Origin: Candidatus Poribacteria bacterium
GTDB taxonomy: Bacteria; Poribacteria; WGA-4E; PCPOR2b
Reading direction: 5' to 3'
DNA length: 64,000 nt
Assembly (NCBI GenBank): GCA_965215015.1
Contig: OZ244042.1
Location: 5,568,001 to 5,632,000 of the forward strand
A program made the translations under genes and the position numbers. Position 1 is the stretch's first letter. Each line of letters starts with the position of its first letter. Under the pieces are notes generated by a model. That model ran no database searches and was not told the DNA's origin. It saw only the letters and a list, made by a program, of their open reading frames with translations. Shown here piece after piece: positions 31,155-40,685 of the stretch.

Positions 31155-32150
31155 TTACATTGACTGAAAGAAGTCAGCCAAGTCCTTGCCGTGTGTCCTT
31201 GCATTGACCTGTTTATCGAGTTTGATAATCTGTCCGTTTTTGTCGATGACAACCGTTATACGACTGCTCAAACCGTCTGGTTTGTCCGTCGCGCCGAAAA
31301 GCAAACTAATGTGGCGTCCTGTATCCACAAGCAATGGAAAGTTAAGGTTATTCTGTTCAGCAAACTCCTTGTGAGATGCTGCATCTTGTACGCTAATTGC
31401 GAAGACTTGCGTATCATGTTCGGCAAATACACTCGACTCATCCCGGAGCGAGCAGACCTCTGCCGTTCAGCCGCCGGTGAAATCTTTGGGATAGAAGGCT
31501 AGCACAACGTTCTTTTTCCCTTTGAAGCTGCTGAGTTGATAGGTGTTACCGTCCTGATCAGAAGCGATGAAGTCTGGTGAAGGTTGCCCGACCTGAATTG
31601 GGCCCGGAATGTTTTCCTTGATTAGCTTGACGAGATCTTCGCCATGCGTTTCCGTGTTTACGGCTCGATCTATAACACGAATATATCCCGCCTTGTCAAT
31701 AACAAAGGTTGATCGATTGGAAGCCTGAAACTTTTCCATAATGCCGCTATAGATTTTGCTGACCACAAATTCCGTGTCGGCGAGTAGAGGGAACCCAAAC
31801 TTCTCCTCCTCTTGGAATTTTTTATGAGAGGCTTCATCATCAACGCTGACCCCCAAAAGGACCGTATCTGTCGCCTGAATTTGGCTCAACTCATCCCGGA
31901 GCGAGCGGAGTTCTGTCGTTCAGCCGCCAGTGAAGTCTTTGGGGTAAAATGCCAAAACGACATTCTTTTTTCCTAGATAATCGCGTAGGCTATGAGCGAT
32001 CCCATCTCCATCGTTAAGTGTAAAATCTGGTGCCGTCATGCCAACTTTCAGGTCTTTAAATATTTCCATCTGTTTCTCCTTCGCGTTTATTACGTTGATA
32101 ACTATAAATGTAGCAACAATTGTAATGCAGAACATTGAAATACGTGACAT
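31155..32150 (-). CDS. Exported tandem two-domain BCP/PrxQ-type peroxiredoxin with two in-frame UGA codons (probable selenocysteines)
   Basis: One continuous frame: signal peptide, then [17 protein letters not shown] (31920-31922) and [17 protein letters not shown] (31467-31469), ending at TAA 31155-31157; each UGA sits at the peroxidatic Cys position of PxxxTxxC. Confidence 0.9.
31431..31453 (-). promoter_or_regulatory. Bacterial SECIS-like hairpin for the second UGA
   Basis: GCTCGCTC-CGGGAT-GAGTCGAGT, 13 nt after the UGA, with a bulged U and a G-containing loop. Confidence 0.8.
31884..31906 (-). promoter_or_regulatory. Bacterial SECIS-like hairpin for the first UGA
   Basis: GCTCGCTC-CGGGAT-GAGTTGAGC, 13 nt after the UGA. 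Confidence 0.8.
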
Positions 32151-32219
32151 TGTGTACCTCCTGTCGGCATTCAAGGATTTACAGGATAACAACCCTATAT
32201 GAATCTTGACCGACAAGAC

Positions 32220-39200: not shown

Positions 39201-40685
39201 ATGAATCTAAATCAACTCTACTATGGCGACAATCTAGACATTTTACGAACCCACATCCCCGACGAAAGCGTCGATCTCATCTACATTGATCCGCCGTTCA
39301 ACTCGAATCAAGCGTACAACGTGATTTTCAGCGAAGCGGATGGATCGTCATCACAGGCGCAGATTCAAGCTTTTGAGGATACATGGCGTTGGGGTGAAAC
39401 CACAGAGCAGGCATATCATGAGTTGGTCGGGACCGCGCCACCCCTTCTGGTTGAGACAATCAAGAGTTTTCGGGGCTTCCTTACAGAGACCAACCTGATG
39501 GCGTACCTCGTGATGATGGCGTTGCGATTGGTGGAGCTCCACCGCGTCCTGAAGCCGACGGGGAGTTTTTATCTCCATTGCGACCCGACAGCATCGCATT
39601 ATCTGAAGATTATCTTGGATCAGATTTTTGGCGTTGAGAATTTTCGGAATGAAATTGTGTGGTGCTACAAGAGGTGGCCTTCAAAACAGACCAACTTTCA
39701 GAAAATGCACGACGTTATTCTGAGATATGGGAAATCCGAAGATATTATCTGGAATCAACTTTACGATGACTTTACGGAACAAACAAAAAAGCGAATAAAA
39801 GGTGCAAAAAAGATTGAGCATTATGTAGGTAAGTCTGGCAAAGTACTGATACGCCCTACTAACGAAGTCTCTCCCGGTGTTGCAATGTGTGACTATTGGA
39901 ATATCCCTATGATAGCAGGGCAGGCAAAAGAACGTCTCGGCTATCCCACCCAAAAGCCGGAAGCTCTGCTCAAACGGATTATCAAAGCGTCCTCGAATGA
40001 GGGAGATGTCGTCCTTGATGCGTTTTGTGGATGTGGAACAGCTATCGCTGTTGCTCAACGGCTTAACCGTCGGTGGATTGGAGTTGACATCACCCACCTT
40101 GCTGTTGCTTTATTGAAATATCGCCTTGCCGATACCTTTGGTGATGATGTGAAATACGAAATCATCGGTGAACCAAAAGACACAGCAAGCGCGAAGGCTC
40201 TAGCGGTTCAAGATCGGTATCAATTCCAGTGGTGGGCGTTGAGTCTGATTCGAGCGAGACCTTATCAAGGAAAAAAGAAGGGCGCAGACGAGGGGGTGGA
40301 TGGGGTAATCTATTATGAAGATGTTGACCCGGACAACCCGAAAAAGACACTCACCCGGAAGATTGTCGTTCAGGTCAAAAGCGGAAAGGTCTCTGTCAGG
40401 GATATACGGGAACTGAAATCGGTTGTCGAGACCCAAGACGCTGTCATCGGGGTCTTTATCACGCTGAACCCGCCGACCCAACCGATGGTCAAGGCAGCGG
40501 CGGCAGCGGGTCGTTTTCAATGGCTTCATGTCAATCATACGACATATCCAAAGATTCAGATTCGGACGATTGAGGAGCTGCTTTCGGGACACGGTATCGA
40601 ATATCCGCAGACACCTGTTGATGTCACATTCCGCAGGGCAGAGCGAGCAGCCCTCCAAAGTCAGCAACTTGAAATAGAGACATGA
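39201..40685 (+). CDS. Beta-class amino-DNA methyltransferase fused to a C-terminal Mrr-like endonuclease domain, copy 1
   Basis: DPPF, YPTQKP and DAFCGCGT motifs; C-terminal GADEGVDG…VQVKSG. Confidence 0.9.
   Translation: MNLNQLYYGDNLDILRTHIPDESVDLIYIDPPFNSNQAYNVIFSEADGSSSQAQIQAFEDTWRWGETTEQAYHELVGTAPPLLVETIKSFRGFLTETNLMAYLVMMALRLVELHRVLKPTGSFYLHCDPTASHYLKIILDQIFGVENFRNEIVWCYKRWPSKQTNFQKMHDVILRYGKSEDIIWNQLYDDFTEQTKKRIKGAKKIEHYVGKSGKVLIRPTNEVSPGVAMCDYWNIPMIAGQAKERLGYPTQKPEALLKRIIKASSNEGDVVLDAFCGCGTAIAVAQRLNRRWIGVDITHLAVALLKYRLADTFGDDVKYEIIGEPKDTASAKALAVQDRYQFQWWALSLIRARPYQGKKKGADEGVDGVIYYEDVDPDNPKKTLTRKIVVQVKSGKVSVRDIRELKSVVETQDAVIGVFITLNPPTQPMVKAAAAAGRFQWLHVNHTTYPKIQIRTIEELLSGHGIEYPQTPVDVTFRRAERAALQSQQLEIET

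Follow-up and report, generated by a model that had tools for sequence, protein, structure and literature searches.

A candidate double-selenocysteine tandem peroxiredoxin in Poribacteria, with a SECIS-like hairpin behind each UGA codon

The minus strand of a 64,000-nucleotide stretch of a Candidatus Poribacteria genome (assembly GCA_965215015.1, contig OZ244042.1, positions 5,568,001 to 5,632,000; this whole stretch is called the window below, and coordinates without a prefix count from its first letter) carries a gene that standard gene calling breaks into pieces. If TGA is read as selenocysteine (Sec, U), positions 32150 to 31155 form one frame of 331 codons, from an ATG at 32150 to a TAA at 31155-31157, and this frame has only two in-frame TGA codons, U77 at 31920-31922(-) and U228 at 31467-31469(-). 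We propose, with a probability of roughly 0.87, that the gene encodes a double-selenocysteine tandem peroxiredoxin (Prx), i.e. one polypeptide with an N-terminal signal-like segment and two thiol-peroxidase domains, and with Sec at the peroxidatic residue of each domain. Each UGA would be recoded by its own in-frame Sec insertion sequence (SECIS), a hairpin that follows within the coding sequence.

One frame across two UGA codons

Under translation table 11, the gene appears as the open reading frames (ORFs) 31920..32216(-) and 31467..31889(-), each of which ends in ...FYPKDFTGG followed by TGA; the tail piece, 31155..31334(-), is missing from the default ORF list because it is 59 residues long and the listing limit is 60. 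The original prediction had joined these pieces into a single hidden gene of 331 codons with two peroxiredoxin domains and UGA at both peroxidatic sites, and our analysis confirms this and places the gene on the minus strand. Both U residues lie within a PxxxTxxU motif (PKDFTGGU), and the Sec sites continue as UTTELR in domain 1 (UxxxxR) and UTAEVC in domain 2 (UxxxxC), as had been described for this genome. In the mature protein C233 is the sole Cys, alongside the two U. The elements of the gene are as follows.

31155..32150, minus strand: whole coding sequence, 331 codons plus TAA, with two in-frame TGA codons
32157..32162, minus strand: Shine-Dalgarno-like AGGAGG, read off the sequence, 6 nt 5' of the ATG
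32082..32150, minus strand: signal-peptide-like N-terminus, codons 1-23, with a basic start, a hydrophobic core and ...INA before KEKQ; the cleavage site is a presumed one
31611..32081, minus strand: domain 1, residues 24-180, AhpC/TSA fold by Pfam, with PKDFTGGU and U77xxxxR82; AhpE (1xvw) at 90.8 bits
31920..31922, minus strand: UGA-1, codon 77, at the peroxidatic-Cys position of domain 1; TGA in 81 of 82 distinct orthologues
31884..31906, minus strand: candidate SECIS-1, GCUCGCUC-CGGGAU-GAG(U)UGAGC, with 8 bp, one bulged U and a 6-nt loop from 21 nt past the UGA
31158..31610, minus strand: domain 2, residues 181-331, AhpC/TSA fold (the best Pfam stretch), with PKDFTGGU and U228xxxxC233; AhpE at 78.3 bits, Bcp1 (3drn) at 77.0 bits
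31467..31469, minus strand: UGA-2, codon 228, at the peroxidatic-Cys position of domain 2; TGA in 82 of 82 distinct orthologues
31431..31453, minus strand: candidate SECIS-2, GCUCGCUC-CGGGAU-GAG(U)CGAGU, same shape and offset as SECIS-1; this is the minimum-energy fold
31452..31454, minus strand: codon 233 (TGC), candidate resolving Cys of domain 2, overlapping the first bases of SECIS-2

The genome has the means to decode UGA as Sec. The genes selA (609.8 bits) and selB (371 bits) and the tRNA-Sec (76.5 bits) lie next to each other at C1:4763111-4766642, while selD (369 bits), with one in-frame TGA, lies at G000:C1:3518779-3519699; all of them score over their cut-offs, and ARAGORN likewise calls a tRNA-SeC with anticodon tca. 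A genome without this machinery had been named beforehand as grounds for rejection, and selA, selB, selC and selD are all present. Among 16 neighbouring genes supported by Pfam, six stop at TGA, five at TAG and five at TAA; TGA is thus an ordinary stop codon here and has not been reassigned throughout the genome.

The gene is widespread among the relatives of this bacterium, and within clear limits. In a sample of 41 related genomes, 39 have a full-length orthologue with two in-frame TGA codons at 54-99% identity, while the other two (G022 and G023) have shorter forms in its place. Across the phylum, 154 of 176 genomes have a match at E <= 1e-40, and these genomes belong without exception to four families of a single order; with the window's own genome excluded, the matches per family are 28/28, 11/11, 6/7 and 108/112, or 153 of the 158 other genomes of the order, and none of the 17 genomes from the seven other families of the phylum matches at this threshold. 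We fetched 100 loci, of which 99 could be parsed (all but L079), giving 82 distinct sequences. The peroxidatic pair is U/U in 81 of these and S/U in the remaining one, Cys is found at either peroxidatic site in none of the 82, and the distance from U to U is 150 or 151 residues across the orthologues.

Ratios of nonsynonymous to synonymous substitution rates (dN/dS) were calculated by the Nei-Gojobori method for 600 random pairs; once those with saturated synonymous sites had been removed, 191-289 pairs remained usable in each segment. The ratio is 0.073 upstream of UGA-1, 0.079 from there to UGA-2 and 0.099 beyond UGA-2, and since it is similarly low in all segments, the regions downstream of both UGAs are under the same purifying selection as the region upstream. 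Codons TGC or TGT in place of TGA, or selection that relaxes past the UGAs, would have counted against this reading; neither was seen in the orthologues, the single departure from TGA being the Ser at site 1.

Hairpins behind the two UGAs

An identical 17-nt core, GCTCGCTCCGGGATGAG, begins exactly 13 nt past each TGA, and a 13-nt version of this core occurs at the two sites in this gene and nowhere else in the 5.94-Mb genome. Both regions fold as ((((((((......))).))))), with energies of -9.0 kcal/mol for hairpin 1 and -9.2 kcal/mol for hairpin 2; in each there are 8 bp, one bulged U and a loop CGGGAU that starts 21 nt past the UGA. The offset, the common core and the bulged-U hairpin are therefore all present as the original prediction described them, in two domains that have otherwise diverged to 48.6% protein identity. 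At the DNA level, the two domains are 94% identical in codons +5 to +10 after the TGA, compared to 38-54% in the flanks. The suggestion that the core might serve as a query for further hidden selenoproteins fared less well, as the genome search with it returned the two sites of this gene and no others.

According to the legend of Fig. 2 in a 2026 review (PMC13188914, accessible in part), the bacterial SECIS model has a loop of 3-9 nt, a stem of 4-16 bp, a spacing of 16-37 nt and a minimum free energy (MFE) of -7.5 or lower, with a G in the first two loop positions that is followed by G or U. Both hairpins agree with the model as given there in loop, stem, G position, spacing and MFE. A search with Rfam at gathering thresholds gave no match within the 64-kb window. 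Because the peptide itself constrains the DNA of the hairpin, we chose a synonymous-recoding test, in which the same 11 residues were encoded by synonymous codons drawn from the family's own usage, with 2000 recodings per hairpin. Only 69 of 2000 recodings for hairpin 1, and 28 of 2000 for hairpin 2, folded as stably as the native sequence.

Conservation across the order singles out the same two places. Among 282 windows of nine codons, synonymous diversity is lowest 5 codons past UGA-2 (0.114) and next lowest past UGA-1 (0.186), whereas the gene mean is 0.715 and the lowest value outside the two hairpin windows is 0.573; the synonymous rate (dS) drops from 1.40 to 0.52-0.73 in the hairpin windows. 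In the SLRD peptide, Leu is encoded by CTC in 80 of 81 sequences for domain 1 and in all 82 for domain 2, while other Leu columns use four to six codons. The column of codon 233 is Cys in 81 of 82 orthologues, and its codon is always TGC. For SECIS-2, a 6-nt CG[G/U]GAU loop is predicted in 80 of the 82 orthologues, its 8-bp helix is 97.4% paired over 58 distinct rows, and RNAalifold returns the same hairpin, with a frequent G-to-A change absorbed by a shift of the bulge. An outer helix around SECIS-2 (columns 6-11 with 43-48), seen in the fold of this genome, was rejected, as it is only 74% paired.

Hairpin 1 is more varied, and the claim that the two hairpins match holds for this genome and its near relatives but not for other families of the order, including the largest one, where hairpin 1 pairs in a shifted register. 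The register of this genome requires GAG at codon +6, which is found in 34 of the 82 orthologues; in another 35 GAG is found at codon +9 instead, giving a CUCGCUC/GAGCGAG stem of 7 bp whose 11-nt loop likewise starts with CGGGAU, while 13 have GAG at neither codon and none at both. Over the alignment, pairing amounts to 78.3% in the first register, whose upper pairs are disrupted in 37-38 of 61 rows, and to 84.5% in the second. The register groups track phylogeny, which argues for few events rather than many. A natural control is provided by the paralogue L081, which has Ser (TCA) for UGA-1 within a degenerate FCPTDFLIGS: its SLRD peptide is kept, and the hairpin sequence is lost.

We suggest that SelB carrying Sec-tRNA(Sec) would bind each hairpin, in which the apical loop CG(G/U)GAU begins 21 nt downstream of the UGA, and would deliver Sec to the ribosome. 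With two UGAs in one frame, the ribosome must escape termination twice for each protein made.

Several points weigh against this reading. Insertion of Sec is something we infer from the known bacterial mechanism. Dinucleotide shuffles of 51 nt give unremarkable fold energies for the native hairpins (z of -0.22 and -0.34), and in the same 51-nt context the region of hairpin 1 takes up another structure at minimum energy. In SECIS-2 five of the eight pairs are invariant and a double change occurs at just one pair, in 2 rows; RNAalifold counts 0 compensatory pairs in SECIS-2, and covariation tests on the hairpins lend no support beyond conservation. The evidence for the hairpin structure is thus conservation, not covariation, and the conserved SLRDE peptide, or else gene conversion between the repeats, could account for part of the conservation of the hairpin DNA. 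As to expression, contigs from two sponge metatranscriptome libraries, which belong to relatives about 86-90% alike, bridge UGA-2 (record 9, 31188-31862) and UGA-1 (record 10, 31850-32153), and these two RNA-library runs cover small shares of the stretch (0.05-0.06); all of this run evidence consists of contigs, which cannot show transcription level, strand or translation, and RNA libraries may contain DNA.

Two other explanations of the UGAs take their support from how such genes look in databases. In a public protein collection, full-length members (P0003-P0019) have W at both Sec sites, which might suggest that the UGAs are read as Trp, Cys or Gly through near-cognate suppression or reassignment; these entries have W because gene callers used a code with TGA=Trp on short contigs. 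We regard a residue other than Sec as very improbable, as TGA terminates six of the 16 neighbouring genes, the genome has a full Sec system, a conserved hairpin follows each UGA at SECIS spacing, and the UGAs are located exactly at the catalytic Cys position, where Trp or Gly would kill a peroxiredoxin. The fragments produced by table-11 calling, three in number, could also be taken for a pseudogene, three small genes, or an assembly or sequencing error, all the more since a protein library clustered at 50% holds mostly fragments of the tandem Prx, such as the 140-residue middle piece P0123. We see next to no chance of this: 81 of 82 distinct orthologues, which come from many independent assemblies, have the same two TGAs, purifying selection extends over all three segments, and an independent DNA contig (run X6, record 19) covers the whole stretch with 18 differing letters. 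None of the 40 listed differences between the window and sequencing-run contigs hits either TGA, 240 further differences being unlisted.

Peroxidase domains and how they may work

Pfam finds the AhpC-TSA family (PF00578) in two stretches of the protein, with a total of 237.9 bits (E 2.4e-71, cut-off 26), and in alignments with AhpE and Cys-type Prx homologues both UGAs fall on the peroxidatic Cys. In both domains the columns of the Thr and the peroxidatic residue (T51/C54 and T/C205) and of the catalytic Arg (R123/R274) are 90-100% conserved among 86 aligned sequences. The original prediction had assigned both domains to BCP/PrxQ, and this proved imprecise: the BCP and PrxQ models are the top NCBIfam matches for both domains and domain 2 has the UxxxxC motif, but each domain remains below the cut-offs and the best solved relative is AhpE. 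Against the BCP model NF006960 (cut-off 140), the domains alone score 87.1 and 88.2 bits, and the whole protein, at 168.6 bits, passes only because the scores of the two domains add up. The domains reach 90.8 and 87.7 bits against the PrxQ model NF053650 (cut-off 260), and the whole protein reaches 131.6 bits against the PrxU model NF040737 (cut-off 270), or about 66 per domain. In the Protein Data Bank (PDB), both domains match the 1-Cys enzyme AhpE of M. tuberculosis best (90.8 and 78.3 bits), 1-2 bits above Bcp1 of Saccharolobus. The domains would thus seem to be AhpC/TSA peroxidases of a BCP/AhpE-like kind and not members of a named equivalog. As they fall under the BCP, PrxQ and PrxU cut-offs, their subfamily, and hence their reductant, is uncertain, which has to be added to the reservations above.

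Each domain most likely works as a peroxidase of its own. In domain 2, a selenenylsulfide between U228 and C233 would form, with UxxxxC as the counterpart of CxxxxC in the atypical 2-Cys enzymes of BCP/PrxQ type; this motif is found in 81 of the 82 orthologues. Domain 1 of this genome, which has no resolving Cys, would work in a 1-Cys-like manner as AhpE does, with an external thiol as its direct reductant.

The product probably acts outside the cytoplasm. Its N-terminus has a basic start and a hydrophobic stretch of about 18 residues, then INA and, past the presumed cleavage site, KE; a hydrophobic 12-residue window (mean Kyte-Doolittle >= 2.0) is found in 79 of the 81 orthologues with an identifiable start. 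The protein is probably exported, with an N-terminus that resembles a signal peptide of the Sec-pathway type but may instead be an uncleaved membrane anchor; that a count of hydrophobicity is the basis for this is a further reservation.

The original prediction had gone further and proposed two asymmetric Sec sites with, possibly, an internal relay. The domains would then pack against each other as a pseudo-dimer, in the manner of the A-type dimer of AhpE/BCP enzymes, and form one redox unit, in which the selenenic acid of domain 1 is resolved by Cys233 or Sec228 of domain 2. The two Sec and single Cys (C233) of the mature protein fit this idea, as do the Arg at the resolving position of domain 1 in this genus, the fusion that is kept throughout the order with a constant U-U spacing of 150-151 residues, and AhpE, the best solved relative of both domains, which we take to be an A-type dimer. 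The residue at position +5 of domain 1, however, varies by lineage, being R in 34 orthologues, C in 26, Q and N in 10 each, and S and K in one each; with Cys in 26 of 82 and Q, N, S or K in 22, the asymmetry of UxxxxR and UxxxxC is a trait of some lineages and not of the family. In addition, the domains also occur on their own. One genome (G022, locus L131) has a domain-1 gene alone, with leader and UxxxxR, and two others (G011, L132; G005, L133) have extra domain-1-only copies beside the tandem that retain both of these features; these copies terminate at or just past the inter-domain linker. A leaderless single-domain Sec Prx of 153 residues with UTAEVC, similar to domain 2, replaces the tandem in genus g5 (G023, L130:816-1274(-)). 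Then there are forms with one dead domain, which is domain 1 in L081 and P0021, and domain 2 in P0018, P0020 and P0124, the last three with Gly and a scrambled motif. L081:3037-3996 is a second copy in a metagenome-assembled genome that also holds L082, and its domain 1 has lost the Thr and has Ser as peroxidatic residue. The existence of separate single-domain forms and of forms with one dead domain makes an obligatory relay unlikely, and we give the pseudo-dimer as a whole a low probability. The comparison favours two independently working sites, with some cooperation in the tandem possible. A caveat to this is that the domain-1-only copies could be decaying remnants.

A related proposal is that the gene reports on selenium supply. 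SelB and release factor 2 compete at UGA, and with little selenium the ribosome might stop at UGA-2, giving a 227-residue domain-1-only enzyme, or at UGA-1, giving a 76-residue peptide, with the ratio of products being regulated. Besides following from this competition, the proposal draws some support from the separate domain-1-only genes in three genomes, which indicate that such a product can be made and kept. On the other side, dN/dS past UGA-2 (0.099) is as low as before it, so selection sees the full-length product, and termination at UGA-2 would leave the product with about 47 residues from a domain 2 that is incomplete. We consider this reading distinctly improbable. One might combine both ideas into a single redox machine, a pseudo-dimer that recycles the Sec of domain 1 via the Sec and Cys of domain 2, in which the ratio of full-length to domain-1-only product reports the selenium supply in the sponge holobiont; if true, an extracytoplasmic antioxidant would have a selenium gauge built into it, but we give the combination only a slim chance. 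Two independently working peroxidase domains, each with its own Sec, remain the reading that we prefer.

As to its origin, the tandem is probably the result of an internal duplication that predates the radiation of the order, in a gene already equipped with Sec and a SECIS. A tree that combines 30 domain sequences with 26 other Prx shows domains 1 and 2 each as monophyletic (100/99), and the two clades group together weakly (81/77), with P0062 unresolved. The tree and the shared hairpin core fit such a duplication; gene conversion between the two repeats is a possible alternative source of their likeness. The single-domain form of genus g5, with 62% identity to residues 24-78 and 72% to residues 211-331, may be ancestral, or may result from a collapse by recombination between the two blocks of Sec site and SECIS.

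Known relatives and genomic surroundings

While the decoding mechanism is ordinary, the doubled Sec-Prx architecture is unusual. In the accessible part of the review cited above (PMC13188914), the Sec-containing family 'Prx' (PF00578, PxxxTxxU) is listed with one Sec, and its prototype is PrxU of Eubacterium acidaminophilum (Sohling et al. 2001, as cited there). As far as that part of the review goes, the protein described here shares with this family the fold, a peroxidatic Sec in PxxxTxxU and an in-frame bacterial SECIS directly past the UGA, and differs from it in having two fused domains, two Sec and two SECIS in one frame, and an N-terminal leader. The same part of the review names prokaryotic proteins with two Sec, namely a UxxU Prx-like oxidoreductase, MbdU, MduS, fusion selenoproteins and the archaeal VhuD. 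These likewise have more than one UGA-encoded Sec per polypeptide, but their two Sec are in one motif or in unlike domains, and none of those named is a duplicated Prx with a duplicated SECIS. Two further papers can be compared in the portions that are accessible: the study of the Olavius symbionts (PMC1976440) has Prx and Prx-like selenoproteins and Prx fusions with other domains, and the GOS study (PMC2398784) has Prx and Prx-like selenoproteins and Prx fused to a PP2C phosphatase and others, and in neither of these portions is there a Prx-Prx fusion. We found no description of a tandem two-Sec peroxiredoxin in the full-text literature searched, where supplementary tables might list one.

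Among enzymes that use Cys, AhpE (Rv2238c; 1xvw, 4x0x) has in common with both domains the block F-x-P-x-x-F-T-G-x-C ... E-L-x-x-L-R-D, and like domain 1 it has no resolving Cys; unlike the tandem, it is a single-domain, cytoplasmic Cys enzyme, and domain 2 here has a Cys at +5. The BCP/PrxQ proteins (3drn, which is nearly tied with AhpE; E. coli-type NF006960) have CxxxxC where domain 2 has UxxxxC, while the tandem arrangement, the Sec in place of the peroxidatic Cys and the lack of a second Cys in domain 1 set the present protein apart. A similar architecture is seen in two-domain Cys peroxiredoxins of other phyla, which have a leader and two Prx-fold domains and are 31-38% identical over most of their length, but have neither Sec nor SECIS, and mostly a domain 1 without a peroxidatic residue. 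In P0130, P0132, P0133 and P0137, for instance, the first domain is degenerate and the second active, while both domains of P0026 (375 residues) show CxxxxC. In the tree, these two P0026 domains form a group separate from those of Poribacteria, an indication that they were duplicated independently.

As far as the literature searched goes, the gene represents a new architecture, a duplicated Prx with two Sec and two SECIS in one frame, fixed across an order of sponge-associated bacteria. It offers a compact natural system in which to study how efficiently a ribosome passes two SelB-dependent UGAs in one message, and it shows a SECIS that was copied and then drifted, with the pairing register of hairpin 1 changed in one family. 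As the database entries are fragmented or have W at the Sec sites, inventories of antioxidants and of selenium use in Poribacteria are wrong at this locus. SelA and SelB have been reported as enriched in bins of sponge symbionts (PMC5649159, accessible in part), and the tandem Sec-Prx adds to these hints of an enrichment of Sec use in sponge symbionts.

Further candidate selenoproteins were seen in the same genome. The selD gene may itself encode one, its TGA lying in ...TCGU with a GU-loop hairpin of its own. Three more thioredoxin-fold genes have an in-frame TGA in a UxxC-type motif (C1:2692466-2692969, WUPFC; 4567376-4567900, YUPHC; 2801177-2801566, WUPNS), and each of these TGAs has a different hairpin behind it, in which the loop is of the GU or GGU kind. 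A scan of the 64-kb window for other in-frame TGAs with an open frame on both sides gave no convincing candidate, and related genomes have many more genes with one in-frame TGA. Poribacteria appear to be rich in unannotated selenoproteins.

The tandem gene lies in a row of housekeeping genes on the same strand: two genes of the DHDPS family, aroA, the Prx gene, aroK, aroQ, efp, a biotin-carrier gene, rsgA and ilvD. The order aroA-prx-aroK-aroQ is kept in 18-20 of the 82 loci, all of this genus, and is uninformative on function. A scan for promoters and terminators gave matches no more numerous than in shuffled sequence. In the order's largest family, a gene of about 205 residues follows the tandem Prx on the same strand, 8-20 nt 3' of it; it is not found at that position in the window's genus. 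This gene encodes a multi-pass membrane protein with PAP2-like motifs (KxxxxxRP-like, SFH, RxxxxxH), which scores 24.7 bits for PAP2 against a cut-off of 27.2. Examples of this PAP2-like gene are the following.

L085:4003-4617: PAP2-like gene of about 205 residues
L082:3976-4587: the same
L090:3916-4530: the same
L123:4020-4622: the same
L113:4003-4623: the same

Two other features of the window may be mentioned. The segment 32197-32249, in the intergenic region between aroA and the Prx gene, has a summed depth of 199 compared to 21.8 in its flanks (run X6), with many separate DNA-run contigs and loose ends, and is a multi-copy repeat of about 50 nt. At 39201-40685(+), an ORF of 494 residues has an N6/N4 DNA methylase domain together with Mrr-type restriction-endonuclease domains, which suggests a fused restriction-modification enzyme.

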